Position numbers and translations under genes: made by a program | NCBI GenBank assembly: GCA_022646745.1 | Contig: CP060262.1 | Coordinates: forward strand, 330,001 to 362,000 | Origin: Planctomycetales bacterium | Lineage (GTDB): Bacteria > 4484-113 > JAFGCY01 | Direction of reading: 5' to 3' | Length of the DNA: 32,000 nt | Shown: in pieces, positions 1,050 through 28,282 of the stretch | Layout of the letters: each line of letters starts with the position of its first letter | Numbering within the stretch: position 1 is the first letter of the stretch | The notes under the pieces: model-generated | Told to the model about the DNA's origin: nothing | Seen by the model: the letters and a program-made list of their open reading frames with translations, nothing else | Databases searched by the model: none

Positions 1050-1984
1050 TCGGCGGCCCCTTCTTCCGGTATATCCTCGCTTGCCAGCTGCGCCATGTCG
1101 AAACTGTCAACGCTGACCTCGTACTGCTGCTTCACGCCCTCGAGTGCGGCATCGAGCTTCTCCCGCTGCTGTGCCTCGATCCAGTCCCGCTCGACATCCT
1201 CGCGGATCTCCCCCAGCTCCAGCGGCCGGCCCTCCCGCCGCTCCTCGATGAACACGAGGTGCACGCCGTAACTGCTTTCCACCGGCCCGCTCCATACACC
1301 GACGGGGTAGTCCCTGATCGCATCCGCGAACATCGGGTCGAACTGCCAGCCGATTTCGCTGAGCGCCACCAGTGGCAGGCGCGGCGGCAGGCTGCCCGCA
1401 TCGCTCAGCTCCTGCACCAGCCCGAGTTCCTCGGTGCCAGTCAGCTGCTGCTTCAGCAGTTCCGCATCCAGCAGCGGCTCAGCGCGCTGCAGCGGGTCGA
1501 GGTAGATCTGCATCAGGCTCAGCGAATCCTCCGTGCGGTAGCGCTCGGGATGCTCTTCAAGGAACTGCTGCAGCTGCCCGTCCGTCGGCGTGGGCGGCTC
1601 GCTGCCGTCATCCAGCAGCAGCTCATACTTGCTGCGCAGGTGGTCACGGATCAGCTGGTCGTCACGGTCCAGGCCCATTCCGCGTGCCTCGCGCACGCAG
1701 ACCTCCGTGCGGATGTAGTCGTCAATCAGTTCCTGCAGCTCAGCCTGCGTCGGCTCACGGTCGAAGTCGCGCACGAACCCGTGGTACATCACCGCGATGC
1801 GCGGGCGGTCGACCGTGATCTCGAACTCGCCCTCATCCGCAGGCTGCTGGCGCAGGTTGCTCAGCAGGAACAGCAGGCCGCCGACCAGGATGAAGTGCAC
1901 GATCGGCTCGCGCCAGAAAGAATGCGGCCGCGCTTCCGCACCACCGCCATCGCCTGCCTGGTTCAGTTTCTGGTTATCTGCCAT
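1046..1984 (-). CDS. Membrane-anchored PpiC/parvulin-type peptidyl-prolyl isomerase-like protein
   Basis: 312-aa ORF with one N-terminal TM helix (PIVHFILVGGLLFLLSNL). The C-terminal segment SGPVESSYGVHLVFIEERREGRPLELGEIREDVERDW resembles rotamase (PpiC-type) domain proteins. A 4-nt overlap with the downstream HupE-like gene indicates an operon. Confidence 0.6.
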   Translation of the reverse strand: MADNQKLNQAGDGGGAEARPHSFWREPIVHFILVGGLLFLLSNLRQQPADEGEFEITVDRPRIAVMYHGFVRDFDREPTQAELQELIDDYIRTEVCVREARGMGLDRDDQLIRDHLRSKYELLLDDGSEPPTPTDGQLQQFLEEHPERYRTEDSLSLMQIYLDPLQRAEPLLDAELLKQQLTGTEELGLVQELSDAGSLPPRLPLVALSEIGWQFDPMFADAIRDYPVGVWSGPVESSYGVHLVFIEERREGRPLELGEIREDVERDWIEAQQREKLDAALEGVKQQYEVSVDSFDMAQLASEDIPEEGAAE

Positions 1985-2013
1985 GTCTCCTGCCGGCCCT
2001 GACCGGATTGCAG

Positions 2014-2019
2014 ATTATG
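2014..2019 (-). promoter_or_regulatory. Candidate -10 box (CATAAT on minus strand) for the ppiC-like/hupE-like operon
   Basis: Plus-strand attatg at 2014-2019 lies 30 nt upstream of the ATG at 1984. It is an isolated AT-rich hexamer in GC-rich DNA. No convincing -35 was found. Confidence 0.3.
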
Positions 2020-2030
2020 GCGCATGTCCG

Positions 2031-2159
2031 GGAGCTACCCGCTTTAGCGGTAGAACGGAGCTGCGGCGCCAGCCGCACAACGGAGGCCAAGCTGTAAGCT
2101 TGGCGTCTGCCAGGCAAACTGCCTGGCCTCCAACATGTCCCTGTAGCTCTAAGAGCTAC
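2031..2159. repeat. Cluster of short palindromic (REP-like) hairpin modules, including a nested two-hairpin module
   Basis: ggagctacccgctttagcggtag (2031-2053). tgcggc/gccgca hairpin (2062-2077). Outer stem ggagg/cctcc (2082-2131) encloses gccaagc-tgtaa-gcttggc and gccaggca-aac-tgcctggc. gtagctc-taa-gagctac (2143-2159). Related copies occur at 12201-12245, 14203-14220 and 14411-14429. Confidence 0.8.
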
Positions 2160-2271
2160 ACTCCACCCTCTATTGCGCCCAGGGCCCACAGCTACTAAGA
2201 ACTAACAACTTCTTCCACTATTCGAACTACCCAAACCATCCCGAAGCCTGCGAAGCTCTGCTTCGCGGCTC

Positions 2272-2327
2272 CCCTGCCTTCTGCCTGTTGCCTTTTGCCT
2301 TCTGTTCCCCGTTCCCTGTTCCCTACT
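2272..2327. repeat. Single-arm heptanucleotide array (NNCTGCC dialect) abutting a stop codon
   Basis: ccctgcc ttctgcc tgttgcc ttttgcc ttctgtt ccccgtt ccctgtt ccctact. The period is exactly 7. The last unit contains the minus-strand TAG stop (2323-2325). Confidence 0.8.
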
Positions 2328-2784
2328 TCATCTCCTCTATCAGCGAGCGCATCTTCTCCGCGCTGACCCCGCTCGAACGCCTCACTTCAATCACGCCGTC
2401 CGGCTTGCCATCCCCGTCCACATCCTGCCCGGCTGCCATATCCTCCCCGAAGCCCAGCAGGATGTAGTCCTTCACGTCATAGCCGTCATGCACCGCGATG
2501 TAGCACACGTTGCCAGCCGCCAGCTCGCCGGCGGTGAAGGCCACCGGATGCATCTCAGTGCGGTCGTAGGGATTGATGAGCGCCATGTTCTGCCCGTCCT
2601 TCATCAGGTCGGCGTTCAGCGTCTCCGGGTACAGCCCGCCATTCTGCCGCGCCCAGTCCAGCAGGTTCTGCTCAATGGTGGCAATGTGCGCCTTGAGCTC
2701 CATGTCCGCCGGACTGCTCGCCGCTGGCTGCTTGCAGCCGGCCAGCAGGGCCAGCAGCGCAATCGCAATCCAGTAAATCTTCAT
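2323..2784 (-). CDS. Small lipoprotein of unknown function
   Basis: 153-aa ORF with lipoprotein signal MKIYWIAIALLALLAGC. A purine-rich SD (gggggaa) lies upstream of the ATG. The segment IEQNLLDWARQNGGLYPETL weakly recalls pseudopilin-type folds, with no firm family call. Confidence 0.7.
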   Translation of the reverse strand: MKIYWIAIALLALLAGCKQPAASSPADMELKAHIATIEQNLLDWARQNGGLYPETLNADLMKDGQNMALINPYDRTEMHPVAFTAGELAAGNVCYIAVHDGYDVKDYILLGFGEDMAAGQDVDGDGKPDGVIEVRRSSGVSAEKMRSLIEEMK

Positions 2785-2973
2785 GTCATTCCCCCTTCGC
2801 CTGTCAGCAGGCCCGGCAGCCTTCCCGCTGCCTGATCCACTCTAGCACCACCTGTGCAGCAGGCCAATCCTGCGCCTCCAGGGGTAGCACTTCCCAGCGA
2901 TGCTAACATTGCAGCGCGCAACACCTGCCGGAAAGCGGACCAGTATCACCTGGCAGGCTTGACCAGGAGCTAC

Positions 2974-3684
2974 ATGTCAACTCAGGAAACACAGACCCGC
3001 AGTACCGGCGGGGTGAAGCGGGTACGCCTCGTGCTCGCCGCCCGCGAGCACCATTATGCTGACGTCCACACCTACCACTTCAGCGCGGACGAGCCGCTGC
3101 CCTACAACGCCGGGCAGTACGTGCATGTCGCCCTCGAGCTGGCCGACCCGGATGCCAAGCGCGTGCGTGAGCTGTCATTCTCATCCGCGCCGCATGAGGA
3201 GCATGTCAGCTTCACCATCGACGGCCGCTCGCGCTCACCCTTCCAGTTGCATATGCTGGCAATGCAGCCCGGGGACAGCCTGCAGCTGTTCAAGTCCAAG
3301 ATGCATATGCTGTGGCCGGTGATCGAGGAATGCGTGGTGTTCATCGCAGGCGGCGTCGGCGTCACGCCCTTTCGTTCGATGGCGCTGGACAAAGAGCACA
3401 GCAGGGTGCGGATGCGGATGGAGCTGATCCACGCCGCCGGCAGCGAGCACCTGTTCGCCGACGTGCTCCAGCCCCTGATGGATGAATACATCGCCACCGA
3501 CCGTGCGGGTCTGGCCGGCGAAGTCACGGCCTGCATCGAGCGCAACCCGGATGCACGCTACTACATCGCGGGCTCACCGGGCTTCGTGGAGGGCATGATG
3601 CAGCAGCTAGAGGCGGGCGGCATCAGCCCAAAGAAGATCGAAACGGACGAGTTCAAGGGCTATGTGGAAGAATGGCAGGAGTAG
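2974..3684 (+). CDS. Ferredoxin-NADP reductase-like FAD/NAD(P)-binding oxidoreductase
   Basis: R-x-[YF]-S type FAD motif (RELSFSS) and NAD(P) motif FIAGGVGVTPF. I place the start at ATG 2974, preceded by AGGAG at 2965-2969, rather than at the GTG 2854 of the ORF track. Confidence 0.8.
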   Translation: MSTQETQTRSTGGVKRVRLVLAAREHHYADVHTYHFSADEPLPYNAGQYVHVALELADPDAKRVRELSFSSAPHEEHVSFTIDGRSRSPFQLHMLAMQPGDSLQLFKSKMHMLWPVIEECVVFIAGGVGVTPFRSMALDKEHSRVRMRMELIHAAGSEHLFADVLQPLMDEYIATDRAGLAGEVTACIERNPDARYYIAGSPGFVEGMMQQLEAGGISPKKIETDEFKGYVEEWQE

Positions 3685-3686
3685 TT

Positions 3687-3791
3687 GTCAGACTACAGAC
3701 ACCAGACTTCAGAAATCAGACTTCCGAATTCAGATACCAGACGTCAGAACAACCTGAAATCTGGCGTCTGTAGTCTGACCACTGACCACTG
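3687..3791. repeat. Heptad-periodic hairpin element (NNCAGAC dialect) between convergent genes
   Basis: 15 consecutive 7-nt units in one phase. 3687-3706 pairs with 3760-3779 (19/20 bp) and the stem extends through 3708-3712/3754-3758. The element lies between the stop of the FNR-like gene and the 3' end of tRNA-Val. Confidence 0.85.
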
Positions 3792-4051: not shown

Positions 4052-4160
4052 GCCTGAATAGCAATGAGCAATGAAGAGTGAGCAATGATCCAATGGAGAA
4101 GCGGGGTCACCTCCCCCTGGTCAGGCTCATTGCTCATCACTCATTTCTCATTGCTCAGCC
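4052..4160. repeat. Heptad-periodic hairpin element (GAGCAAT/ATTGCTC dialect)
   Basis: Left-arm units are tagcaat gagcaat gaagagt gagcaat and right-arm units are attgctc atcactc atttctc attgctc. 4079-4088 pairs with 4127-4136. The core 4060-4088 is 28/29 identical to the reverse complement of 12332-12360. Confidence 0.85.
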
Positions 4161-7696: not shown

Positions 7697-8116
7697 ATGT
7701 CTCAGGAGCTCCGTCCCGCGCTATCGTTATCAGCGATGTCAGTTGAAACCATGCTGCCGGTCCTGATCAGCCAGCTCGAGGGCGGGCGTTCGCTTAACAT
7801 ATATGGCCTGATGCACCACGAGGCCGAGCAGTACGAGAATGGCGAACTGTTCGGCAGCGGACGCAAGGCCTTGCTGCAGCTGCACCGCGAGTTCCGCGAG
7901 GGCGTGAAGGGTTATCGAGGCGTCGTGCTGGACAGCCGCATTGAAGGGGACATCGCCTACCTGCACGTGCGCTACGAATTCACCGAGTCCGACGGCCAGC
8001 AGTACAGCATCCCCGGCATCCATGAGCTGCACTGGAAGGGCAACATGGTCATGCGCGAGGACTTCTGGGTGGAGAAGCATTACGCGAAGAAGCGCAAGCA
8101 ACTGTTTCCCGGCTAG
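7697..8116 (+). CDS. Small NTF2/SnoaL-like fold protein (tentative)
   Basis: The stop is firm (TAG 8114-8116). The start is uncertain: GTG 7637 (ORF track) overlaps the divergent yihY-like start, while ATG 7697 and ATG 7736 are alternatives. ATG 7736 sits 7 nt after a TATCGT hexamer. The alpha+beta pattern (GDIAYLHVRYEFTESDGQQYSIPGIHELHWKGNMVMREDFW) suggests a SnoaL-like domain. Confidence 0.5.
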   Translation: MSQELRPALSLSAMSVETMLPVLISQLEGGRSLNIYGLMHHEAEQYENGELFGSGRKALLQLHREFREGVKGYRGVVLDSRIEGDIAYLHVRYEFTESDGQQYSIPGIHELHWKGNMVMREDFWVEKHYAKKRKQLFPG

Positions 8117-11064
8117 CCAGCCTGGATCGCAGAACCCAGCAGTTGCCGGCCGAGGGCATCCAAGGTTGCGTCCTGCGGTTCCGGAATCCGCTCCATGCCC
8201 TCGGCCAGTTCGTCGAGGTGCATCTGCTCCACACGGGCCAGCGTTGCACCCTTCGCCGTCCAGGCAGAGATCGCGGCCACGATCCGCTCCGCCCCCGCCT
8301 CGTCAGCCTGCTCCTTCAGGTAGAGCCCGCAGACCAAAAGCGCCGTTGCCAGCAGGCGTTCGCCGCCGAGTTCGAGCGCATCCGCCAGTGCGGAGCTGAG
8401 CAGTGAATCCAGCGAGTCTCGCCGGCCGAGCCTGAGGCTGGCAGCTGCGATGTCGCACAGGCAGGCCGCGATGCCGTAGCGGTCATCCAGCTCCCGAGAG
8501 ATCGCCATGCTGCGTTCGGCGTACTCCAGTGCCTTTTCGAAGTCCCCGGTGACATAGCTCACCAGTCCCATGTTGCCAAGGCAGTGCGCCACTCCGCGCC
8601 GGTCGGCCAGGTCCTCACGGATCGCGCGGCTGCGCTCCAGCAGCTCCAGCGCGCGGGCAAAGTTGTCAATCCGGTACTCCGTCAGGCCCTGGTTGTTGAG
8701 CGAGCCGGCCAGGCTGTAGCGCTCGCCGAGTTCCTCCTGAATCGCGATCGCCTCATCCTGCATGCGCTGTGCATCCCGGTAGCGGCCCTCGGCACGGGCG
8801 ATCAGCGCCAGCCCGGTCAGCGCGGCCGCGATGCCGTACTGGTTGCCGATCCCGCTGTCGGTGTCCAGCGCCTGCTGGTACAGCCGCCGCGCGTTGCCAC
8901 GGTCGCCGCTGCGCAGGTAGACGCTCGCCAGGCTGATGCTGGCGGAGGCGTATGTCCAGAGGTCGCCGCCGTCACAGGCATCACTCATCGCACGCACGAA
9001 GTCCATCTTCGCGCCGACATTGTCACCGGCCGCACGGTTGACGCAGCCCGACAGCCAGCAGGCCAGCGCGCGGCTCTCAAGGTCCTCACTCTCCAGGAGC
9101 AGGCCGGCCAGCTCACGCAGCACACGGCGCGCCGCCGGCAGGTGCCCGTCACGTTCCAGCACGCGGGCCAGCCCGAGCAGCACCTGCACCTTCAGTTCAT
9201 CACTGCCGCTGCGCTCGACGTACTCATGCAGGCGGCGGAACCACTGCAGCTGCTCCCGCTGGCGCGTTGCCATTTCCTGGAAGCGTGCCAGGTAGCGCAC
9301 CAGCGGTGCCAGCAGCTCGTTGTCAGCGAGCCGGATCGCGGTCTCGATCGCCAGGTAGAAGTTCTCCGTCTCCGGCCTGAGCCGCGCCAGGGCCTCGATC
9401 TGCCCGGCCCCCTTGAGCTGCTCGCCGAGCCGTGCGATCAGTCTACTATAGCTAGCAGCATGCGCCCTGAGCACTTCATCCTGCCGGCCGCTGGCTTCCA
9501 GCTGCTCGTTGGCAAAGCGCCGCGAGGCGGCATCGCGCATCATGAAACGGGTCTGGGAGCCGCTCCTGCGGCTGACGAGCCAGCTGCGGTCCACCAGCGC
9601 ACTGAGCTGCATACGGGTCACGCCGGGCAGCACCTCCGCCAGCTGTTCATGGCTGAAGCCACCGCGGAACACGCTCAGGCCCTGCAAAAGCTCCTGCTGC
9701 TGCGTTGTCAGGTGCCCGTAGCTCCATTCACAGGAGGCGCGCACGCTGGAGTGGCGCTGCGGCATGTCGCTGTGGCGCGACTGCAGGTCCAAAAGCCCGC
9801 CCAGTTCATCGCGCAGCTCCTCGAGGCTGAAGCTGTCCAGCCAGGCCGCCGCCAGCTCAATCGCCAGCGGCACGCCCTCGAGACGGTGGCAGACCTGCTG
9901 GATCAGCAGGGCGTTGTCAGCATCAAGCAAGAAGTCCGGGTCAGCCTGCTGCGCGCGGTCCACGAACAGCGCGATCGCCTCCCCCGGCTCATGCAGCATG
10001 TCCGCCGGCGGGATGCCGAGGGGCTCGATGCGCAGCAGCTGCTCGCGGCGCAGGTGCAGCGGCACGATGCTCGTCACGAGGATGCTCACGCGCGGCGCTT
10101 CCCGCAGGATGCGGTCCACCAGCGGCGCGGCATCAGTGATGTGTTCGAAGTTGTCAAGGTAGAGCAGGAGCTCACGTTGCGCGAGGAAGTCCACCAGCTG
10201 GTCCTCTGGGGCGCGGCTGCCGTGGAAGCTGAAGCCCAGTGCATCCGCGATCGCCGAGACCACGCGGCTGGCATCCCCGAGGCTGGACAGCAGCACCTCA
10301 CAGGCGCCATGCTCGAAATGGTCCAATAACTCGGCGCAGCACTGCGCGGCCAGCCGGCTCTTGCCGTAACCCGGCGGGCCGACGATGCTCACCAGCCGGC
10401 GCTCGCCATCCGTCAGCATCCGCCTGAGATTGTCCAGTTCATCGCGCCGTCCGACGAATGTGCCGGCCTGTTCACTGAGCCGGCCCTTAAGGCTGCCGAC
10501 GGTCGGCAGCGGCGGGAATTCACTCTGGCCGAAGTCCGCATGCACGACCTGCACCAGCTCCTCCGGCTCGCCGAGGTCCCGCAGGCGCTGCATGCCGAGG
10601 TTGATGCTGGCTAACCCGAGCGGCAGGTCGCCGGACAGGCCGTCCAGCAGCTCGCGGGATACCAGCAGCTGGCCGGGATGGCAGCACTGGCAGATGCGCG
10701 CGGCCCGGTTGAGCGGCGGCCCGAACCATTCGCCGCCGCTGGACAGCTGGCGCAGCCGCCCACCATGCGCCACCACGCGCATCCTCAGCGGTGAATTGTC
10801 CGGCAGCAGGCCCAGCCCCTCCACCGAGCGCTGCAGCTCGACGGCGCAGCGCAGGCAGGCATCGGCACTGGCGAACAGCAGCAGGTAGCCGTCACCGAGG
10901 TTCTTGTGCAGCACGCCGCCCTGGGCAGCCACCTGCTCCTCGATCATGCGGTTGTGCGCATCCAGCAGGCGCGGGTAGTCGGACGGGAAGTCCTCCCACA
11001 ACCGTGAGGATGATGCGATGTCCGTGATCAGGATGTAGTGCTGCTGCAGCGATGCCGAATCCAC
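8113..11064 (-). CDS. Class III adenylate/guanylate cyclase domain fused to a STAND-type P-loop ATPase and C-terminal TPR array
   Basis: 983 aa. The cyclase motifs are ILITDIASSS (metal Asp), KNLGDGYLLLF (second Asp) and FGPPLNRAARI (Asn/Arg). The Walker A is GPPGYGKS at about aa 229-236, preceded by FVGRRDELDNL. The C-terminal half holds many TPR-like repeats (for example YQQALD, EKALEYAERSMAI). GTG start. Confidence 0.85.
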   Translation of the reverse strand: MDSASLQQHYILITDIASSSRLWEDFPSDYPRLLDAHNRMIEEQVAAQGGVLHKNLGDGYLLLFASADACLRCAVELQRSVEGLGLLPDNSPLRMRVVAHGGRLRQLSSGGEWFGPPLNRAARICQCCHPGQLLVSRELLDGLSGDLPLGLASINLGMQRLRDLGEPEELVQVVHADFGQSEFPPLPTVGSLKGRLSEQAGTFVGRRDELDNLRRMLTDGERRLVSIVGPPGYGKSRLAAQCCAELLDHFEHGACEVLLSSLGDASRVVSAIADALGFSFHGSRAPEDQLVDFLAQRELLLYLDNFEHITDAAPLVDRILREAPRVSILVTSIVPLHLRREQLLRIEPLGIPPADMLHEPGEAIALFVDRAQQADPDFLLDADNALLIQQVCHRLEGVPLAIELAAAWLDSFSLEELRDELGGLLDLQSRHSDMPQRHSSVRASCEWSYGHLTTQQQELLQGLSVFRGGFSHEQLAEVLPGVTRMQLSALVDRSWLVSRRSGSQTRFMMRDAASRRFANEQLEASGRQDEVLRAHAASYSRLIARLGEQLKGAGQIEALARLRPETENFYLAIETAIRLADNELLAPLVRYLARFQEMATRQREQLQWFRRLHEYVERSGSDELKVQVLLGLARVLERDGHLPAARRVLRELAGLLLESEDLESRALACWLSGCVNRAAGDNVGAKMDFVRAMSDACDGGDLWTYASASISLASVYLRSGDRGNARRLYQQALDTDSGIGNQYGIAAALTGLALIARAEGRYRDAQRMQDEAIAIQEELGERYSLAGSLNNQGLTEYRIDNFARALELLERSRAIREDLADRRGVAHCLGNMGLVSYVTGDFEKALEYAERSMAISRELDDRYGIAACLCDIAAASLRLGRRDSLDSLLSSALADALELGGERLLATALLVCGLYLKEQADEAGAERIVAAISAWTAKGATLARVEQMHLDELAEGMERIPEPQDATLDALGRQLLGSAIQAG

Positions 11065-11147: not shown

Positions 11148-12152
11148 TCAGCCCGCGGCGAAGATCCGCTTGCGGCGCTCCAGCACGTCATTGCATGCAT
11201 CGAGCACGCCCTTGACGTTCAGGCCCGCGAGGTCCATCAGCTCATACGGGTCGCCGCTGGAGAGGTACATGTCGCGCACCGCCACCAGGCGCACCGGCAC
11301 GAGGTTCTCGCCCTCCGCCATCACCGTCGCCACCGTGCTGCCCATGCTGCCGTAGTAGCTGACTTCCTCGGCCACCACGATGCCGCCGGTCTCGCCCGCC
11401 GCCGCCGCGATCGCTTCGCGGTCGATCGGCTTGACGCTGCTCATGTTGAGCACGCGCGCCGAAATGCCCTGCTCCGCCAGCTGCTCGGCAGCCAGGATGC
11501 AGCGTGAGAGCATCAGGCCATGCCCGATGATCGTGATGTCAGTGCCCTCCAGCACCTTGGTGGCCTTGCCGAAGTTGAAGGGCGTATCCTCACTGGAGAT
11601 CAGCGGCACCTTCTCGCGGCCGATGCGGCTGTACATCGGGCCGTACCACTCCGCCATGAACTTGGTGCACTTGAGCGTCTCCCAGTAGTCCGTGGGGTAG
11701 ATCAGCGCGGTGTTCACCAGCGGCTGGATGCAGGAGCAGTCCTCGGAGGACTGGTGCGTCGGGCCGTCCTTACCGACGGAGATGCCGCCGTGCGCGGCGG
11801 TGATCTTCACGTTGCAGTAGGAGTAGTCCACGGTGTTACGGATCTGGTCCCAGGAACGGCCGGCGAGGAACATCGAGTAGCTCGCGAGGTAGGGGATGAA
11901 GCCCTGCTTGGCGAGGCCCGCCGCCGTGTTGATCATGTCGTTCTCGGAGATGCCGCACTCGAAGAAGCGGCCGGGGTAGCGGTCGCGGAAGAACTTCGTG
12001 TAGGTGGACTCCGCCAGGTCGGCGTCGAGCACCACGACCTTCTCGTTGGTCTCGCCGAGCGCCAGCAGCGCATCGCCGAAGCCCTCGCGCGTGAGCTTGT
12101 CCTCCCAGGCGGAGCTGGGCTTGTAACCGTTCAGATAGTTGAGTTGTGCCAT
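11148..12152 (-). CDS. Transketolase, C-terminal (pyrimidine-binding plus C-terminal domain) subunit of a split enzyme
   Basis: 334 aa. TREGFGDALLALGETNEKVVVLDADLAESTYT, GISENDMINTAAGLA and HGGISVGKDGPTHQSSED are canonical transketolase Pyr-domain motifs. Confidence 0.9.
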   Translation of the reverse strand: MAQLNYLNGYKPSSAWEDKLTREGFGDALLALGETNEKVVVLDADLAESTYTKFFRDRYPGRFFECGISENDMINTAAGLAKQGFIPYLASYSMFLAGRSWDQIRNTVDYSYCNVKITAAHGGISVGKDGPTHQSSEDCSCIQPLVNTALIYPTDYWETLKCTKFMAEWYGPMYSRIGREKVPLISSEDTPFNFGKATKVLEGTDITIIGHGLMLSRCILAAEQLAEQGISARVLNMSSVKPIDREAIAAAAGETGGIVVAEEVSYYGSMGSTVATVMAEGENLVPVRLVAVRDMYLSSGDPYELMDLAGLNVKGVLDACNDVLERRKRIFAAG

Positions 12153-12184
12153 TGTCTTGTCCTGCCGTTCGCAGCGGCAGGAAG

Positions 12185-12190
12185 ATTATA
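12185..12190 (-). promoter_or_regulatory. Candidate -10 box (TATAAT on minus strand) giving the C-terminal transketolase gene its own promoter
   Basis: Plus-strand attata lies 32 nt upstream of ATG 12152. A CTGCCG/CGGCAG hairpin (12162-12180) sits in the predicted 5' UTR. The layout matches that upstream of the ppiC-like gene. Confidence 0.35.
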
Positions 12191-12200
12191 TAAGGTGCGT

Positions 12201-12245
12201 GGAGCTACCCGCTTCAGCGGTAGGAGGCCAGGCTGTTAGCCTGGC
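12201..12245. repeat. Palindromic module pair (REP-like), homologous to 2031-2053 and 2082-2104
   Basis: ggagctacccgcttcagcggtag matches 2031-2053 at 22/23 positions. gccaggc-tgtta-gcctggc (12227-12245) recurs reverse-complemented at 14411-14429. Confidence 0.8.
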
Positions 12246-12260
12246 TGCGGGATGCGGGAT

Positions 12261-12365
12261 GCCGAGCAATAAAGAATTAGTCCTGAGCAATGAGCCAATC
12301 CTGACTGAGCTAACTTCGATGCAACATGGACTCATTGTTCACTCTTCATTGCTCATTGCTTCCCC
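12261..12365. repeat. Heptad-periodic hairpin element (GAGCAAT dialect), inverted copy of 4052-4160
   Basis: 15 units of 7 nt in one phase. The reverse complement of 12332-12360 is agcaatgagcaatgaagagtgaacaatga, against agcaatgagcaatgaagagtgagcaatga at 4060-4088. A second shared block is ggctcattgctca. Confidence 0.85.
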
Positions 12366-12480
12366 CAGCCGCCGGACATTCAGGGCGGGGATCACGACAA
12401 AGGCGTGATCCTCGGGCGGGGATGTCAAACAGGCCGGCGGCTGGTGAGGATATCGGAGCTGGGTTGTAGCGGGTAGCGGA
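12361..12480 (+). repeat. 120-bp direct repeat, copy A (left flank of the low-GC orphan ORF)
   Basis: It aligns without gaps to 13128-13247 at an offset of 767 nt. The blocks gccggacatYcagggcggggat and cgggcggggatgtcaaacaggccggcggctggtgagga are near-identical, with a variable 23-nt centre. Outer stem is gccgccgg/ccggcggc. Confidence 0.85.
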
Positions 12481-12531
12481 AGAACTGAAGAACGGAGGTG
12501 TGCAATATATCTGAACAGCTATAATCCTGAA

Positions 12532-13083
12532 ATGAAACTTCCTCAGCCCCAAAACTGGTGGGATAACTCAATGCTTAAGGACGCGGAGATCCAGGTGTAT
12601 GACAATTCTCTCGAGTTGAGTCCCCATTCTATCTACATGAAGGCTCTGTTGGATGAAGAAAAACCACCGTGGATTGACGAAATCTATGCAATTCGATGGC
12701 GCGATGATTGGCAATGGCAGATTCTATTCGAATCAAAGTGTGAGTTTGATTCAGCTCGGACAATTGTAGTTATCTCAAATCAGGATGATCAATTCCTCGA
12801 AATAGACACTATGTGGTCACATACTCACATGTCTCCATGTGATGTGATTGATTGGATCGTCAGAATGCGAACGGAGTCACTAGTCGAGATTGTTTACTTC
12901 ATTGACAATGAAGACCGGGGAGGTGCTTACAAAGAAGCTTCATACCTTAAGACCGCCAATCCACAGCAAGAAGTACTGGACTTTTTTCGCAAAGTTGGAA
13001 GTACCAACATAGGCAAGGTTGTCACTAGAGCTGTATTCTCATGGAAGGGAACATTTGACTCGGTAATGGAAGTCAGATTGTAA
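12532..13083 (+). CDS. Orphan hypothetical protein in a low-GC (about 40%) insert
   Basis: 183-aa uninterrupted ORF, acidic and Trp-rich, with no motif I recognise. TATAAT (12520-12525) lies 6 nt upstream of the ATG. An alternative start is ATG 12571, after ggtggga. Composition contrasts sharply with the flanks. Confidence 0.6.
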   Translation: MKLPQPQNWWDNSMLKDAEIQVYDNSLELSPHSIYMKALLDEEKPPWIDEIYAIRWRDDWQWQILFESKCEFDSARTIVVISNQDDQFLEIDTMWSHTHMSPCDVIDWIVRMRTESLVEIVYFIDNEDRGGAYKEASYLKTANPQQEVLDFFRKVGSTNIGKVVTRAVFSWKGTFDSVMEVRL

Positions 13084-13127
13084 CTGAAAGCAGTTGCCAA
13101 AAAAATGTGATATTCGGCTTCAACTGG

Positions 13128-13247
13128 TTCCCAAGTCGCCGGACATCCAGGGCGGGGATTGAGCCGCAGGCGAGATCCACGGGCGGGGATGTCAAACAGG
13201 CCGGCGGCTGGTGAGGACTTTGGAGCTGGGTTATAGGGTGTAGCGGA
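13128..13247 (+). repeat. 120-bp direct repeat, copy B (right flank of the low-GC orphan ORF)
   Basis: See copy A. The outer stem keeps pairing through a C-to-T change (gtcgccgg/ccggcggc, giving a G-U pair). Confidence 0.85.
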
Positions 13248-13258
13248 TGGATCCAGAT

Positions 13259-14140
13259 CTAAGTCTTCAGCCGCGAATCAAGCCAGGCGTAGGCATACTC
13301 CCGCATCTCAGGAGTGAACACATGTCCGCCTTCGTAGATCTTCAGTTCCACCTCCTGGGTCGGGTAACTGGCCCTGATGTAATCAGCGAGCGCTTGTGCA
13401 CCAAAGCTGTACTTGTCCTGCGTCGTTGCCGAGATCAGCGTAGAGCAATTGTCAAACAGGCCGACCAGATCCCCGATATCACCCCAGCCGGCAATCCCCG
13501 GAATCGCAAACTCCAGCTGGATGCCAATGTCCTTCTCCATCGATTCCGCATATGAAATGCAGCGGCAGTTTGAAACGGTGGCCCTGATGCGATTGTCAAA
13601 TGCCGGATACCATAGTGCCATCTGCCCGCCATAGGAATGGCCGATGAAACCGATTCTGTCAGCATCAACTTCGGGCAGCGTGCACAGGTAATCCACCGCA
13701 GCAGTGATGTCGTGGACAGCCTTGGCATTCAGCGAAGATCCCTGCACCAGCCGGGCTGTGAACTCCCTGTACGCTGTGCCGCCTGTATTGCCGGTATCGT
13801 TGCGCTCTTCGAAGCCGATCGCATCCGGCGCAATGACAACATAGCCCCGCTCGGCAAGCTCCTTTGCATAGCACTGATCCGGGTCCCCTGCCAGGCCGAC
13901 CACCTCACTCTTGCCAAGCTCAAAATTGCCGGCATGCTGGTGATGGGCGAAGATGGCTGGCAACTTTCCCCCATGCTTCGGAAGCAGCAGATAAGCGCTG
14001 ATCCGTTCGCCTGCTTCTGAAGCATATTCAACCTTCCGCTGAATGTAAGAACCCTTATCCTCCTCAGCCAGGACAACTGGCTCGAGTGCTGCCTTGCCAG
14101 GGAAATCGCCGAGGAGCTTCAGGAGTTCGCGCTTCTTCAT
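13259..14140 (-). CDS. Alpha/beta hydrolase, dienelactone-hydrolase-like esterase
   Basis: 293 aa with nucleophile elbow GHSYGG and a C-terminal His in YEGGHVF. GC is intermediate, in the mid-50s% by hand count. TACAAT lies 6 nt upstream of the ATG and no SD is present. Confidence 0.75.
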   Translation of the reverse strand: MKKRELLKLLGDFPGKAALEPVVLAEEDKGSYIQRKVEYASEAGERISAYLLLPKHGGKLPAIFAHHQHAGNFELGKSEVVGLAGDPDQCYAKELAERGYVVIAPDAIGFEERNDTGNTGGTAYREFTARLVQGSSLNAKAVHDITAAVDYLCTLPEVDADRIGFIGHSYGGQMALWYPAFDNRIRATVSNCRCISYAESMEKDIGIQLEFAIPGIAGWGDIGDLVGLFDNCSTLISATTQDKYSFGAQALADYIRASYPTQEVELKIYEGGHVFTPEMREYAYAWLDSRLKT

Positions 14141-14197
14141 GGCCTGATTGTAGCCCAGCCGCTCAGACCCGTCCCGTACTGGATGTCCGTCGGCTGC

Positions 14198-14281
14198 GGA
14201 GTGTAGCTCTTAAGAGCTACATGGCCCTGTCGGTCTTTGACCGACACTCCGAATACCTTGCCGCCTCATACAAGTATTCGG
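14198..14281. repeat. Nested palindromic (REP-like) module cluster
   Basis: Outer stem ggagtg/cactcc (14198-14250) encloses the perfect 18-nt palindrome gtagctcttaagagctac (14203-14220) and gtcggtc-ttt-gaccgac (14229-14245). It is followed by ccgaatac...gtattcgg (14249-14281). Confidence 0.8.
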
Positions 14282-14379
14282 CGGTCTGTCGCTGAGGCCG
14301 GCAAATCCGTCCGGGTCGCGAACATGAAGGAATCGGCTTGTGCGACAATCACGCCAGGGCGTTATCGCAGCTCCTGATC

Positions 14380-14466
14380 CTCATTCTGATTCTCTTTCTG
14401 CTTCTGCCTTGCCAGGCTAACAGCCTGGCCTCCCTTCTGCCTACTGCCAACTGCCTACTGCCCACT
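14380..14466. repeat. Heptad array (NNCTGCC dialect) interrupted by a palindrome and running into a stop codon
   Basis: The sequence ...tctttct gcttctg ccttgcc is followed by the palindrome gccaggctaacagcctggc (14411-14429), then cccttct gcctact gccaact gcctact gcccact. The TAG stop of the VOC gene (14455-14457) lies inside a unit. Confidence 0.8.
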
Positions 14467-15378
14467 CGCCCCGTATTGCCAGAAGGTCACCACATTCCCC
14501 GCCGGGTCCGACACGCTGAACCACTGCAGGTCCGCCGGCTCGCCCTGCAGCTCCTCCGGCTCAGCTCCGCTGGCAACGAGCCGTGCATGTTCGGCGGCGA
14601 TGTCGAAGCATTCGAAGCACAGGCGCAGGGGTGCCGGATCACTGTCCTCCGGGTTGCCACCGCCCCACCAGCTGGCCCAGTCCATCAGGCCGACGAAGCG
14701 TCCCTCATCTGACAGTTTCAGGGCCTTGTAGACACTGCCATGTTCCTGCAGCACATTGAAGGCCAGGTGCTGCGTGTACCACTCCGTCGCCTCGTCAATA
14801 TTGCCAACGAACACCAGCGCTTCGCCCATGCCGTAGCGGCTGGATGCCGGAGCCTGTGCCGCATGCGCCTCCACGGCCTGCGTGGCGGCGACGTCACTGG
14901 TGGCATCCGCCCAGATGATCAGCGGCTCGCCGTACTTATGCCTGATGCCGATGGTCTGCATCGACTCATCGCCCGTGATCTCCGTGCAGTCGTTGCCAAG
15001 TGCGATCAGCCGCGCGCGGTCCGTGGCCAGGTCCATGCTCTGGAAGCTCAGGTTGGCAGCCGGTGTCGGCCCACCGGGTTCGAATCCCTCAGCCCATTGT
15101 GCAGCGACGAGTGACATCTGGTAGGCATTGTCACAGCTGATGGATGCGTACTGGTCGCCGAATTCGAACATCACGGTCCAGCCCAGCCTGTCACGGTAAA
15201 AGTCCCGGCAGGCGGTCCAGTCCTCGGCGTAGCAGACCACCTCAGCGACCTGCAGGCGGTGGGCATCATTGCTCTTCTGTGCATCCATGGAAGCCTCCCG
15301 GGCGTGCGGGAATTCAGGTATGAACAGCAGCAGCATTGCGGCTGTTGCCATTACCAGGCAGTGAATGGTCCTGTGCAT
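14455..15378 (-). CDS. Secreted protein with two VOC/glyoxalase-bleomycin-resistance-type domains
   Basis: 307 aa with signal peptide MHRTIHCLVMATAAMLLLFIPEFPHA. There are two beta-alpha-beta-beta-beta style modules (VAEVVCYAEDWTACRDFYRDRLGW... and ALVFVGNIDEATEWYTQHLAF...DPAGNVVTFWQ). A GGGGAG SD lies upstream. Confidence 0.7.
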   Translation of the reverse strand: MHRTIHCLVMATAAMLLLFIPEFPHAREASMDAQKSNDAHRLQVAEVVCYAEDWTACRDFYRDRLGWTVMFEFGDQYASISCDNAYQMSLVAAQWAEGFEPGGPTPAANLSFQSMDLATDRARLIALGNDCTEITGDESMQTIGIRHKYGEPLIIWADATSDVAATQAVEAHAAQAPASSRYGMGEALVFVGNIDEATEWYTQHLAFNVLQEHGSVYKALKLSDEGRFVGLMDWASWWGGGNPEDSDPAPLRLCFECFDIAAEHARLVASGAEPEELQGEPADLQWFSVSDPAGNVVTFWQYGASGQ

Positions 15379-15422
15379 CTAGAACTCCCCGAACTGAACT
15401 GGCTTCCCCAAGCCTCAATTTT

Positions 15423-15527
15423 TCTAGACACCAGACTACAGACTACAGACTTCAGAGTGCTGAGCCCTCGATTCTGCTGCCAACGAAGATCTGATGTCTG
15501 AAGTCTGAGCTCTGAAGTCTGACGTCC
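15423..15527. repeat. Heptad-periodic hairpin element (NNCAGAC dialect)
   Basis: The 15 units are tctagac accagac tacagac tacagac ttcagag tgctgag ccctcga ttctgct gccaacg aagatct gatgtct gaagtct gagctct gaagtct gacgtcc. 15446-15457 pairs with 15510-15521 (12 bp). It shares the 11-mers agactacagac, agacaccagac and cagacttcaga with 3687-3791. Confidence 0.85.
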
Positions 15528-15528
15528 G

Positions 15529-16617
15529 CTACTCCACCGGCGACATTTCCCGGAAGTGGTCCGGCTTCACCGCGTCCGGGTGCAGGGTGTTGTGGCGCTT
15601 CTCGGTGATCGTAAGGTCCGCCGGGCCGCCCGGGCCCTCGCTGTCCATGTGCACCACGCGTGCCCAGGGGCTGGCCTGGATCTGCTGCACCACGCCGTCG
15701 TAGACCGGCGCGCCGTACTCCGCGCGTACCTCGTCGAGGTTCTCGAATTCATAGCCGAGCGCCTTCAGGCAGGCAGTGGCCTCCGCATCGGTGCAGGCCT
15801 TGCCGTGCCACTTGAAGATGTCCTCGTACTCCGGCACACCCTTCATCATCGTGGTGTGGAAGACCAGCGCCTTCGGGCTGCCCTCCTGCTTGCGGGCCCA
15901 GCTCCAGGCCGCGTTGATCGCGTCCATGTCATGCCCGTCCACGTTCTGCACCATCCAGTGGCAGGCCTCCAGCTTCTTGTCCAGCGGGTCAAGGCGCTTC
16001 ACGTCCTTCACGCGGCCGTCGATCTGGATGTCGTTGTAGTCGCAGCTCATCACCAGGTTGTCCGTGCCACGGTGCCCGGCGTGCATGATCGCTTCCCAGA
16101 TCTGCCCTTCCTGCATCTCGCCGTCGCCGACGTTGCAGTAGACGAACTGCTCGCCCTTGCCCTCAAGCTTCTTCCCAAGCGCCATGCCATGCGCCACGCT
16201 GAGGCCCTGCCCAAGCGAGCCGGTGCCGATCTCGACACCCGGCAGCTTGATGTGGTTCGGGTGGCCCTGCAGACGGCTCGGGGTGGAGCGGAAGGTCAGC
16301 AGGTAGCCCGGGCTGAAGAAGCCGCGGCGTGACAGCAGGCTGTACTGCAGCGCGCTGACGTGGCCGTTGGAGATCACGTACTTGTCGCGGTCCGGCCAGT
16401 AGGGCTTATGGGGGCGGATGCGCATGTGGTTGAACAGCAGCGCCGCGGTGTAGTCGGCCATGCTGAACGGCCCGCCGGTATGGCCGCTGTTGGCGGCATT
16501 GGTCATCATCACCGCGTCCTTGCGCAGCGTGCGCGCGACCTCCCTGAGCTCATCGTTGCTCAGATTGAGCGTGTCGGCCTTAAGGCTGCGTTCGCGGATT
16601 TCGGCGTGTGAAAGCAC
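15529..16617 (-). CDS. Transketolase, N-terminal (TPP-binding) subunit of a split enzyme, with a C-terminal extension
   Basis: 362 aa. NSGHTGGPFSMADY, GSLGQGLSVAHGMALG and VGDGEMQEGQIWEA are canonical transketolase PP-domain motifs. GTG start with ggggtga upstream. About 70 extra residues follow the WHGKA region. Confidence 0.9.
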   Translation of the reverse strand: MLSHAEIRERSLKADTLNLSNDELREVARTLRKDAVMMTNAANSGHTGGPFSMADYTAALLFNHMRIRPHKPYWPDRDKYVISNGHVSALQYSLLSRRGFFSPGYLLTFRSTPSRLQGHPNHIKLPGVEIGTGSLGQGLSVAHGMALGKKLEGKGEQFVYCNVGDGEMQEGQIWEAIMHAGHRGTDNLVMSCDYNDIQIDGRVKDVKRLDPLDKKLEACHWMVQNVDGHDMDAINAAWSWARKQEGSPKALVFHTTMMKGVPEYEDIFKWHGKACTDAEATACLKALGYEFENLDEVRAEYGAPVYDGVVQQIQASPWARVVHMDSEGPGGPADLTITEKRHNTLHPDAVKPDHFREMSPVE

Positions 16618-22799: not shown

Positions 22800-23822
22800 A
22801 TGGCGACGATCAGCAGACTCGGATTGCTGCCCTGGCTGAGGCACCTGCGCGGTGAAAGCAGCCAGTACATCCTCGTGTTCAGCGGCGGGCGGCTGACGAA
22901 GAGCGGCCCCGGCCTGGCGTTCTGGTTCAACCCGCTGTCAACGGCAGTGGCCCAGGTGCCGCGTGAGGACATCGAGACCACCTTCATGCTGCGCGAGCGC
23001 AGCTCGGACTTCCAGGAGATCAGCGTGCAGGTGACGATAACCTACCGCGTGCTGGACCATGCGATGGCCGCCGAGCGCCTCAACTTCTCCGTCTCGCTCG
23101 TGAACGGCGCCTGGCTGGAGCAGCCGCTGGACCGGCTGGCCAGCTTCTGGATGCAGCGCTCGCTGAAGAGTGCACGCGACTACATCTCCTCCAACACGGT
23201 GCAGCAGAGCGTGACCGCCGGACCGGGGGCGATAGCCACTGCGATCACCAGCGCGCTGAACGATGACCCGGAGCTGGAGGCGATGGGGCTTGGGCTGGTC
23301 GGCGTGCAGGTCAACAGCGTGTTGCCATCCTCCGACGTGGAGAAGGCGCTGCAGACCCCGACCCGTGAGGCGATCCAGCAGAAGGCGGATGAGGCGATGT
23401 TCGAGCGCCGCGCGATCGCCGTCGAGAAGGAACGAGCCATCAAGCAGAATGAGCTGGACACCGAGATCGAGCTCGAGAAGAAGAATGAATCCCTGATCCG
23501 CAAGAAGGGTGAGAACCGCCGGCTGGAGATCGAGGCCGAGAACGAGGCCGGCCGCCTGACCGCCGAGGGCGACGCCCAGCAGGTGCGCATCCGCGCCGAG
23601 GGCCAGGCCGAGAGCAAACGCATCACTGCCCAGGCCGAGAACGAGGCCGAGGCCGCCCGTGTCGCGCTCTACCGCGATGCCCCGGCCAGTGTGGCCACCG
23701 GCATGGCGCTGATGCAGTTCGCCTCCAAGGTGCGCGACATCCAGCACCTGAACGTCACCCCGGACCTGCTCGGCAGCAACCTGCGCCAGTTCCTCACAGA
23801 CCAGGGCGACACGGCGGAGTAG
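22800..23822 (+). CDS. SPFH/Band-7 (flotillin/stomatin-like) domain protein with C-terminal Glu/Ala-rich coiled coil
   Basis: 340 aa. The SPFH-type N-terminal half is followed by a flotillin-like EA-rich region (EAENEAGRLTAEGDAQQVRIRAEGQAESKRITAQAENEAEAARVALY). gggagga SD lies upstream. No obvious N-terminal TM helix. Confidence 0.75.
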   Translation: MATISRLGLLPWLRHLRGESSQYILVFSGGRLTKSGPGLAFWFNPLSTAVAQVPREDIETTFMLRERSSDFQEISVQVTITYRVLDHAMAAERLNFSVSLVNGAWLEQPLDRLASFWMQRSLKSARDYISSNTVQQSVTAGPGAIATAITSALNDDPELEAMGLGLVGVQVNSVLPSSDVEKALQTPTREAIQQKADEAMFERRAIAVEKERAIKQNELDTEIELEKKNESLIRKKGENRRLEIEAENEAGRLTAEGDAQQVRIRAEGQAESKRITAQAENEAEAARVALYRDAPASVATGMALMQFASKVRDIQHLNVTPDLLGSNLRQFLTDQGDTAE

Positions 23823-27900: not shown

Positions 27901-28191
27901 AGCAACACTGCCCTGGCGGACCCGGTCGGCATCGGGGCCGGGCAGATGCAGCACACGCTGTCCGCGGCCCAGGCCTGGGGCCTGACTGCCGTGGCGATCT
28001 CCGACCAGTTCGGCGGCGAGCAGGGCTGGCTGGAATGGAGCAACTTCGGTGAGTTTGAAAGCCTCGCGCTGCCACCGATCGACATGCAGTACACGATGAT
28101 GCACGAACTGGTCGTCGGAGCAGATGGCCGCTGGCACATCATCTACCGCGACAAGCGAGACGGGGCGATCTATGCGATCAGCACCACATGA
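24940..28191 (+). CDS. Giant lipoprotein: N-terminal beta-sandwich, FN3-like and PKD-like domains, then a large propeller-like C-terminal region
   Basis: 1083 aa with lipobox VLASC and a Gly tether. The FN3-like stretch ends in YRYRVRVADVSGNSS. The PKD-like stretch is GQMVTFDLSGSYDPDGEPLTEYTVQFDN. Blade-like repeats carry degenerate Asp-box-like motifs (DNDGTNW, YDEGTASW, RNGGSW). GAGGAG lies 7 nt upstream of the ATG. Confidence 0.8.
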   Translation: MRFNRTRIYLLMLLLMPAVLASCGAGGGSAVSSLDVASQPSHPLQDSAALADGLPALDQLPEPSRSAMLSGPGYFPVPVLEQGVMLQRSGSVMSGPQGIELDGSAGEAWVLFGVYGFDGDSQPNSVMAEATDVQGSFHIGVTHYASGRWEWSAPFTGDEEHEYEHVAQYTVADQYVSERGYHYIAVLAPEGSSLLLSGLQLGVDGGDNAPVAPDYFEISNGDAGFHFWWYPSPDHDDPDFAGYTMQRALWPGTDFQDLGPLSHETFYHDAAADPALLYRYRVRVADVSGNSSWGYSNTPVSVSGDNYPVPALEMPAGPLYGGQMVTFDLSGSYDPDGEPLTEYTVQFDNTNGMGGVGPLTSTDPLVSVLLQPGCYVVQAAAKSTVYCQPIVDTLKIYPAWQPEPQLVAEPGSGQWRMQSSRSIYWQQGDAIVTFFNDYLGPGLGALVQHADGSREILQVPYYLYDIDWISEPVVWQGQPYVGVVSDNVMLLAAIGVDGLQWVEGGLGYTGFVNIDLVVDGEDQLRVCTLNEYNPGDFEVLAINAGNPLDIYTLEFMSNSDGPFDVEWNPEYGGFELIYTTVGSIHWNRTDEEGGLVDNDFVGAGIFDSLDMELHADGSPGVMGRSGGSFVYFSYDEGTASWSAPEVIEPAGLNGKSGDLLFDGNDMAAFFGLAVGQSSLYRRNGGSWDPQTVNWALLSGQHCAIAQWPDGRVNIIDGTVGGAIFISDFNEDGSHPAPIEVPSVSWDGIDLNAVAGADGIHAVWRGDNGAIHYIADNDGTNWNASTGFVSSDALELMADENGKVFVGNTHGATADLFSWFGGAWLIEGSSNRWGSSLPYLAAQRDAPGGQFIVQDDLPVPPALRHMHDDGGGFLVFDSYDFDTIRIDEGVSLFTGAGLISFVRGDEILGSSGLVGFISADDHSYAHQIHDYLYTSSVDLTRGRRMDACNYLTGPSNSHSAFWVSGLEDGAPGVTRFQGKAYNGKYNVDSNTALADPVGIGAGQMQHTLSAAQAWGLTAVAISDQFGGEQGWLEWSNFGEFESLALPPIDMQYTMMHELVVGADGRWHIIYRDKRDGAIYAISTT

Positions 28192-28282
28192 TGTACCCTT
28201 CCGGTTTCACATCCCGGCCAGCCGGGTATCAGGACAGGTTGCCCCTCCGGGGCTCCTGCATTTTCTGTCCAGGAGTATTGAG

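Follow-up and report, generated by a model that had tools for sequence, protein, structure and literature searches.

What places a low-GC gene of a very rare family, read against all of its neighbours, between two copies of one structured repeat? The question is raised by a stretch of 32,000 nucleotides (the window) from a Planctomycetales bacterium of lineage 4484-113 (contig CP060262.1, positions 330,001 to 362,000), in which direct repeats of 120 bp at 12361-12480 and 13128-13247 enclose a single open reading frame (ORF) of 183 codons. A preliminary description, made from the letters of the window, had seen in this arrangement a gene cassette or a site-specific insertion. That the layout resembles a cassette is confirmed; a dedicated mechanism behind it is unproven. 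The answer that we prefer, tentatively and just short of an even chance, is that the hairpin element of about 86-93 nt contained in the repeats, to which we give the working name R1, constitutes a new, lineage-specific family of dispersed and strand-specific palindromic repeats of the REP/BIME, ERIC or Correia kind, gained and lost in intergenic regions and found at the junctions of variable segments, and that the ORF is an independent, rare gene that would have been brought between two different R1 copies.

The repeats and the R1 hairpin family

Set against each other at an offset of 767 nt, the two repeats need no gaps and agree at 102 of 120 positions, with a longest shared block of 38 nt (12413-12450, equivalent to 13180-13217) and a variable centre of about 22 nt, much as first described. 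Their sub-patterns occur exactly twice in the 32-kb window, against zero expected from shuffles, and both copies form a hairpin that folds more strongly on the + strand than on the - strand, with fold energies of -59 kcal/mol (z -3.9) for copy A and -47 kcal/mol (z -1.4) for copy B. The fold given in the preliminary description is borne out, including the C-to-T difference at 13136 that retains pairing as G-U. Its treatment of the 120 bp as one element is not: each repeat is a composite of an R1 hairpin (12361-12446 in copy A and 13128-13213 in copy B, both +) and a separate tail unit of 34 nt, which reads AGGATATCGGAGCTGGGTTGTAGCGGGTAGCGG after copy A (12447-12480, +) and AGGACTTTGGAGCTGGGTTATAGGGTGTAGCGG after copy B (13214-13247, +). 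A covariance model trained on seven R1 copies scores 103.5 bits over 12361-12453 (E 1e-24) and 99.5 bits over 13128-13220, and finds only these two full copies in the window. Copy A is built from a basal helix P1 (CCAGCCGCCGG/CCGGCGGCTGG) with an 8-nt bulge on the 3' side (CAAACAGG), a second helix P2 (ACATTC/GGATGT), a G-rich internal loop and a variable terminal hairpin, GATCACG/CGTGATC. The terminal hairpin of copy B, GAT-TGA-GCC/GGC-GAG-ATC with tandem G-A pairs, is unlike it.

A pair of this kind might be the product of the insertion itself, if the ORF had entered one pre-existing repeat and duplicated it, either as a long target or by local tandem duplication. The copies are indeed direct, gap-free and in register, and have the 38-nt block in common. 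We nevertheless regard this origin as very improbable and disfavour it, since the terminal hairpins are unrelated in sequence, each is self-complementary, and they match copies in other genomes: the tip of B lies one mismatch away from a copy in the metagenome-assembled genome (MAG) AC1.30 (L027), and that of A resembles the copy in the MAG Ww346 (L030). Moreover, A and B have diverged by 15% while the module carrying the ORF is 100% identical across contigs, and the ORF homologues discussed below are preceded by sequence orthologous to tail A.

R1 is found well beyond this locus. A 20-mer from its 3' half, searched against one genome per GTDB species, returned 10 loci, seven of them with the entire element, in the MAGs UBP7 HKST-UBA01, HKST-UBA03, 'bacterium AC1.30' and 'Planctomycetales Ww346'. 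In the JGI metagenomes an 18-mer gave 39 loci, among which L061 alone is a genuine R1, and a gapped R1 pattern gave 0 matches. The covariance model added two more copies in a UBP7 contig (L028), one in a 4484-113 MAG (L084) and a contig-truncated copy in a sister strain (L106), and three apparent half-site matches turned out to be full elements with some 60 nt extra in the terminal loop (long forms). The family thus stands at 13 full copies and one truncated copy from at least seven genomes or contigs (UBP7, 4484-113, AC1.30 and Ww346), with lengths of 86-150 nt when long forms are included. Because seven of the 13 were found through an exact 20- or 18-mer, the conservation of the 3' half is overstated; four copies found without that word differ from it by 1, 1, 1 and 5 bases. 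Rfam 15 gave nothing in the window at gathering thresholds and nothing for the repeats (12100-13400) at E up to 10. Three R1 patterns run against IMG/VR yielded 0 matches twice and 15 chance matches once, none confirmed by the covariance model, and 12361-13247 had no match among PLSDB plasmids and INPHARED phages.

Across the family, P1 comprises 9-11 bp (GCCGCCGG/CCGGCGGC) with the one-sided bulge, P2 pairs ACAUCC with GGAUGU, the internal loop reads AGGGC on its 5' side and GGGCGG on its 3' side, and the terminal hairpin, P3, varies in both sequence and length. The sequence GGGCGGGGAU is present in both arms as an internal direct repeat. Over the 13 copies 84.6% of the cells in the proposed helices pair, and double changes are seen at 13 of 29 pairs, distributed over all three helices; none of 500 shuffles reaches the observed covariation values, and shifted registers pair in just 30-51% of cells. 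P1, P2 and the base of P3 also emerge when RNAalifold is run on an alignment made independently with MAFFT. Among the non-Watson-Crick cells G-U pairs (12) far outnumber A-C (2), and tandem G-A pairs are frequent in P3, so that the structure belongs to one strand. The alignments give good support to the view that R1 is a previously uncatalogued structured element with three covarying helices and near-invariant loops, and subtypes of its terminal hairpin are common to non-orthologous loci of different MAGs.

The setting of the copies, examined in 8-20 kb around each match, argues against the notion that the hairpin is specific to the boundaries of inserts. R1 stands next to dinB and to genes for ribonucleotide reductase, GlnRS, an acyl-CoA dehydrogenase, PCMT, a secretin, a glyoxalase and secreted proteins of unknown function, as well as next to the ORF, with no theme common to these neighbours. 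As to the suggestion that further copies might flank other orphan ORFs, dinB lies between two co-oriented copies in L028, reproducing the layout of the window, and many copies in the related MAGs are placed between ordinary core genes. Low-GC segments of hypothetical genes adjoin five of the 13 copies. The elements also cluster (two within 0.9 kb in the window, three within 5.2 kb in L028), and their orientation is strongly biased: no copy out of 13 is antisense to both neighbours and 12 point in the same direction as the upstream gene. Convergent spacers are occupied by copy B, by L028b and by the L084 copy, and a divergent spacer by copy A. In L028 a 2.2-kb island of low GC (1500-3700, UBP7 MAG), which encodes an HRDC-domain protein and a family-less protein of 525 aa, has a border that coincides exactly with an R1 copy.

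Taken by themselves, these features might be those of a motif that acts purely as RNA in untranslated regions and operon spacers, whether as an element that binds proteins, undergoes processing or cleaves itself, or as a G-quadruplex/hairpin switch, in which case adjacency to variable segments would be incidental. Covarying stems joined by near-invariant unpaired bases (AGGGC, GGGCGG and the bulge), an optional insertion in the terminal stem, the G-U bias and the tandem G-A pairs all fit such a function, as does the constant co-orientation with some neighbouring gene. Judging from the alignment, the element could also fold in more than one way, given its four conserved tracts of G3 and the two choices open for AUCC/GGAU pairing. 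We nonetheless consider this reading somewhat unlikely. The adjacent genes share no functional theme and R1 has no match in Rfam; its occurrence in convergent as well as divergent spacers suits neither a 5' nor a 3' role throughout; and its presence or absence varies at the same locus between genomes that are 86-96% identical there.

The 183-codon gene and its tail unit

The interval between the repeats (12481-13127) holds one ORF of 183 codons (12532-13083, +), opposite in strand to every neighbouring gene, as originally noted. Its GC content is 43%, and at third codon positions 0.46, against 0.91-0.93 in both transketolase genes of the locus. The compositional jump described for the interval is confirmed: its 42.7% GC compares with 64-66% in the repeats, 65% in the gene for the C-terminal transketolase subunit (TktC) and 62.6% in the window overall, and the side of the dienelactone-hydrolase-family gene (DLH) reaches only about 56%. 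The lack of any recognisable motif in the protein is confirmed by the failure to find a credible match in Pfam (E up to 10), PADLOC, PHROGs, NCBIfam or PDB profiles. A word-seeded homology search with the ORF gave no match. Exhaustive phmmer searches revealed two full-length homologues, one of 184 aa with 46% identity (P0076, E 5e-50) and one with 48% identity and a frameshift near codon 10 (P0078); a third match, to a protein of 946 aa (P0079, E 2.6e-5), is weak and repetitive. AlphaFold2 models of the protein reached a predicted local distance difference test score of 40 from the single sequence and of 47 from the three-sequence alignment, values that do not warrant a fold search. That the ORF is a genuine gene follows from the existence of relatives and from an open frame of 183 codons that is very unlikely to arise by chance in DNA of 43% GC.

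The hexamer TATAAT at 12520-12525 (+), which the preliminary description had already pointed out, lies 6 nt 5' of the ATG and is likely the -10 box of a leaderless transcript. It precedes the start codon by 5-7 nt in all three genes of the family, despite amino acid identities of 46-48%, a constancy that speaks for a shared promoter giving rise to a leaderless mRNA. A consensus promoter scan found no -35 element fitting the hexamer, which dismisses a sigma-70 promoter with a -35 box. DLH carries a similar hexamer, TACAAT, about 6 nt before its ATG (14141-14160, -), and leaderless mRNAs may be common in this organism. A contig equivalent to window 12323-12868 (L089) bears a C-to-T change at 12712 that turns codon 61 into a stop (Q61*); this nonsense allele may mean that the gene is dispensable, or it may be a sequencing error.

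The preliminary description had looked to relatives carrying the ORF with normal GC and no repeats as evidence against an insertion. Both homologues, which sit behind an SDR gene, do lack flanking R1 copies, yet their GC stays below that of their flanks (0.53 versus 0.65 and 0.46 versus 0.53-0.59). What accompanies them is the tail unit, AGGAYNTNGGAGCTGGGTTRTAGNGNGTAGCGG, a repeat distinct from R1 that occurs twice in the window and travels with the ORF. It lies upstream of both homologues, in tandem in L083 and with 93% identity over 29 nt in L084, and in inverted form also downstream of one of them. It is likewise kept in a metagenomic contig (L006) where hairpin A is absent. GTAG motifs are found in the tail units next to R1 and not within R1 itself. 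On these comparisons the ORF is independent of R1, its homologues being devoid of the hairpin and provided with both tail unit and TATAAT.

A variable slot between the transketolase halves

The window reads, in order, the gene for the N-terminal transketolase subunit (TktN, 15529-16617, -), a secreted glyoxalase-like gene (14455-15378, -), a relic of R1, DLH (13259-14140, -; GC at third positions 0.65), the inverted unit of copy B, ORF and copy A, TktC (11148-12152, -), a STAND/TPR gene and BrkB, with TktN, glyoxalase, DLH and TktC assigned through Pfam; TktC is a conserved flank and DLH an accessory gene of the slot. The relic (14160-14205, -) is a degenerate third copy located directly upstream of the DLH start codon. 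It contains an exact 16-nt match, GCCGACGGACATCCAG, at 14179-14194 (-), against 0.04 expected, and is kept in strain S2 as GCCGACGGATATCCAGGGCGGGAC; the covariance model misses it in the window. From its sequence it looks like an R1 element that has lost the segment between its two internal GGGCGGGGAT repeats.

The slot varies in two close relatives. In the Ww346 MAG (L030), with nucleotide identities to the window of 86% for TktN, 87% for TktC and 77% for the glyoxalase, the order is TktN, R1, glyoxalase, TktC and BrkB, with neither DLH nor the ORF. In strain S2 (L106/L107 and L072/L073, from the same samples), where TktC and DLH are 95.6% and 87% identical, it is R1, glyoxalase, relic, DLH, an inverted gene for a PKD-repeat lipoprotein and TktC. 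Hence DLH is absent from one relative and present in the other, and the 150-nt spacer between TktN and the glyoxalase, which has no R1 in the window, holds one upstream of the glyoxalase in both. R1 shows insertion polymorphism at this spacer and in the slot between DLH and TktC. An empty orthologous site with a single repeat, which the preliminary description had suggested looking for, was not found in the related loci: L030 is without DLH and ORF altogether, and S2 carries the lipoprotein gene instead.

The borders of the segment can be placed with some precision. Homology between S2 and the window ends at 12361, the outer edge of hairpin A, and resumes at about 13268, some 20 nt past tail B and within the last codons of DLH. 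By this alignment, the repeat-ORF-repeat interval first singled out is a strain-specific segment, almost to the base. A second set of borders is given by L006, a metagenomic contig of 771 nt that contains window 12447-13134 at 100% identity, flanked on its left by unrelated sequence that consists of the last part of another gene, followed by tail-like sequence and a small hairpin, in no stated order; its 83-nt foreign stretch found no place among the sequences compared. L006 and a further contig (L005) both stop at 13134, just before P1 of copy B. The four breakpoints, 12361 and about 13268 against S2 and, at the inner edges of the two hairpins, 12446/12447 and 13134 against L006 and L005, lie at the hairpin borders: the left edge of copy A is the break in synteny with S2, and its right edge is the alternative junction in L006.

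Such a coincidence gives weight to the possibility that R1 is the site of a non-integron, single-strand-specific system of gene mobilisation, similar to attC or to the hairpin ends of IS200/IS605-type elements, with the ORF as a true cassette. A recombinase encoded elsewhere would cleave each hairpin at its foot and mobilise units composed of a hairpin and a gene, or of a gene and a hairpin. In its favour, R1 is built like attC, with two conserved stems, a conserved bulge between them and a terminus that varies from 11 to about 80 nt, and is likewise strand-asymmetric; the repeat-gene-repeat layout is found twice (ORF in the window, dinB in L028); each of the four breakpoints coincides with the edge of a hairpin; L006 repeats the ORF module at 100% identity in a second context with differing flanks; R1 or its relic stands 5' of each accessory gene in the slot between TktN and TktC, namely the glyoxalase (in L030 and S2), DLH and the ORF; and low-GC segments lie beside five of the 13 copies. 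The absence of an integrase or transposase, on the other hand, extends beyond what was first reported for the window. No such domain was detected in the 21 larger window ORFs scanned with Pfam (including 22800-23822), no integrase domain around 11 other R1 copies, and neither the window nor some 100 kb of related loci contains a tyrosine, serine or HUH recombinase. The edges show neither a conserved cleavage motif nor a target duplication, many copies lie between ordinary core genes and none in an array, the homologues of the ORF do without R1, copies A and B agree at only 85% of positions and have terminal hairpins unrelated to each other, and the junction in L006 lacks a hairpin, though a site-specific product should keep one. 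We judge a mobilising system of this sort unlikely, and still less likely its more specific form, in which R1 would be the single-strand recombination site of an undescribed cassette system of UBP7 and 4484-113, analogous to attC or HUH sites and served by an unlinked recombinase. If such a system existed, single accessory genes would be shuttled into operon spacers, the slot of the split transketolase being one example. What stands of the earlier cassette proposal is a strain-specific segment in a slot that differs in L030 and S2; integrase, core sites and array are lacking.

The likeness to integron cassettes, of which the 120-bp VCRs of Vibrio super-integrons are a well-known instance of attC sites, is one of architecture only. 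It comprises a repeat-ORF-repeat arrangement with an orphan ORF of deviant composition, copies in direct orientation, and a strand-asymmetric single-strand fold in which conserved basal stems, an unpaired spacer and a variable tip can be distinguished. In contrast to attC, the bulge of R1 is one-sided, copies stand between core genes, copy A lies 5' of the ORF in a divergent spacer, and there is no IntI, attI, Pc or array here. R1 contains no RYYYAAC/GTTRRRY cores, its basal stem being GCCGCCGG/CCGGCGGC; the only near-match, GTCAAAC, falls in the one-sided bulge and has no partner. An integron attC cassette is ruled out by the missing IntI, core sites and array. IS200/IS605 elements and PATEs share with the locus direct and similar sub-terminal hairpins at both ends, single-strand specificity and the absence of target duplication, but R1 forms far larger hairpins and mostly occurs as single copies, TnpA and TnpB genes are lacking, and no guide or cleavage tetranucleotides can be recognised.

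R1 among palindromic repeats

The families that R1 most invites comparison with are intergenic palindromes. ERIC (IRU) elements of Enterobacteria and Correia (NEMIS) elements of Neisseria are imperfect palindromes of 100-155 bp dispersed between genes. R1 is like them in size, in its long imperfect hairpin, in its location in intergenic regions and operon spacers, in the existence of short and long forms that differ by an internal insertion, and in a presence that varies among close relatives. It differs in having no sequence similarity to them, in carrying GGGCGGGGAT twice as an internal direct repeat, in the strong conservation of its unpaired bases, in a stricter orientation bias and a lower apparent copy number, and in that neither target duplication nor a relationship of inverted repeats to a transposase is seen. 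REP sequences are palindromes of 20-40 nt with a conserved GTAG foot, often arranged as inverted doublets, and the RAYT (Y1) transposase mobilises the REPINs that these form. With REP and BIME elements R1 shares the character of an extragenic, strand-specific palindrome at gene ends and between convergent genes, and in the window it co-exists with shorter REP-like elements of the form GTAG/GGAGG plus hairpin. Yet it is two to four times longer, forms no inverted-REP doublet, lacks GTAG at its foot and has internal repeats that are direct and not inverted, and no RAYT gene was seen in the loci scanned. Measured against MITEs, P1 provides terminal inverted repeats of 9-11 bp, and the flanks of the 13 copies show no consistent direct repeat that would indicate target-site duplication.

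Two further candidates were rejected. An intrinsic terminator is discounted by 0 terminator-like sites in 12100-13400, the sequence that follows P1 being GGTGAGGA. The template and variable repeats of a diversity-generating retroelement are dismissed, given that no reverse transcriptase was found, that both copies are intergenic and that the mismatches between them, of every type, gather in the hairpin tip.

In the account that we favour, that of a dispersed palindromic family, R1 would be transcribed together with an adjacent gene and adopt a hairpin fold of great stability (-45 to -59 kcal/mol) whose G-rich loops are conserved. The hairpin would probably serve as a transcript-end or insulator structure, blocking exonucleases or polymerase or binding a protein. 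As DNA, the scattered copies with their hairpins may act as hot spots of segment exchange, and the ORF, with its own promoter of the leaderless type and its upstream tail unit, may have entered the slot between DLH and TktC in this way, by recombination at or near R1, and have come to lie between two different copies.

Several points weigh against this account. Near-invariant unpaired bases are unusual for a plain REP or MITE, and a dedicated RNA or recombination function would fit them better. Copy A occupies a divergent spacer, in which a role at transcript ends makes no sense, and neither a target-site duplication nor a transposase was seen at the copies examined. Dispersal has been judged from the 8-20 kb around each match and not from genome-wide copy numbers, seven of the 13 copies owe their discovery to an exact word of 20 or 18 nt, and the inner breakpoints depend on one metagenomic contig of 771 nt and on contig ends.

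Whatever its nature, R1 marks the edges of strain-variable slots and so offers a handle on the shuffling of accessory genes where no integrons or insertion sequences can be recognised nearby, in a poorly studied, uncultured candidate lineage from which alone it is known. If it were a recombination site or a processing RNA, it would represent a new class. If it is of the ERIC or REP type, it would supply a marker for strain typing and for assembly breaks in these MAGs, and an example of several families of palindromic repeats competing for the same intergenic sites.

Other palindromes of the locus bear on this last point. A REP-like element consisting of GGAGG and a hairpin of 7-8 bp has four copies in the window, at 2082-2104 (+), 2109-2131 (-), 12223-12245 (+) and 14411-14433 (-). 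The latter two are perfect inverted twins (100% identical) that bracket DLH together with the repeat-ORF-repeat unit, and the one at 14411-14433 is absent from S2 at this position. Stem changes among the copies are compensatory, similar elements follow genes in L030 and S2, and the elements of S2 differ from those of the window. A second palindromic element, of about 100 nt (CTCATTGCT/AGCAATGAG; 12262-12360, or to 12361 as alternatively delimited, with no strand assigned), abuts hairpin A and is the last sequence common to the window and S2. It resembles window 4060-4156, beside genes for tRNA-Val and tRNA-Cys, and L072 1226-1323. Palindromic simple repeats of the form CAGACTTCAGA...TCTGAAGTCTG are found at 3700-3760 and 15430-15525, and the second of these fills the spacer between TktN and the glyoxalase, where L030 and S2 have R1. 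Different families of palindromes thus seem, from the aligned spacers, to replace one another at one site, and the differences among strains in REP-like elements and spacer palindromes indicate that this lineage rapidly swaps intergenic palindromes of several families.

Some minor observations concern the wider neighbourhood. Two very large ORFs of the window, at 24940-28191 (1083 aa) and 28124-31543 (1139 aa), have no match in Pfam. The halves of the split transketolase (11148-16617) lie 3.4 kb apart with three accessory genes between them, and in more distant relatives (L074 and L090) TktC occurs without TktN as a neighbour. A contig equivalent to window 11348-13907 (L003) is 100% identical over 11772-13553 and then 12% diverged within DLH (13553-13904), mostly at third codon positions, which makes it either a recombinant between the strain of the window and an S2-like strain or an assembly chimera. 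Finally, the gene located between TktC and BrkB (8113-11064) encodes a STAND-type protein of 983 aa, with AAA_16/NB-ARC and TPR domains and a weak N-terminal match to cyclase-like sequences; it is missing from the syntenic region of L030, which points to another strain-variable insertion.

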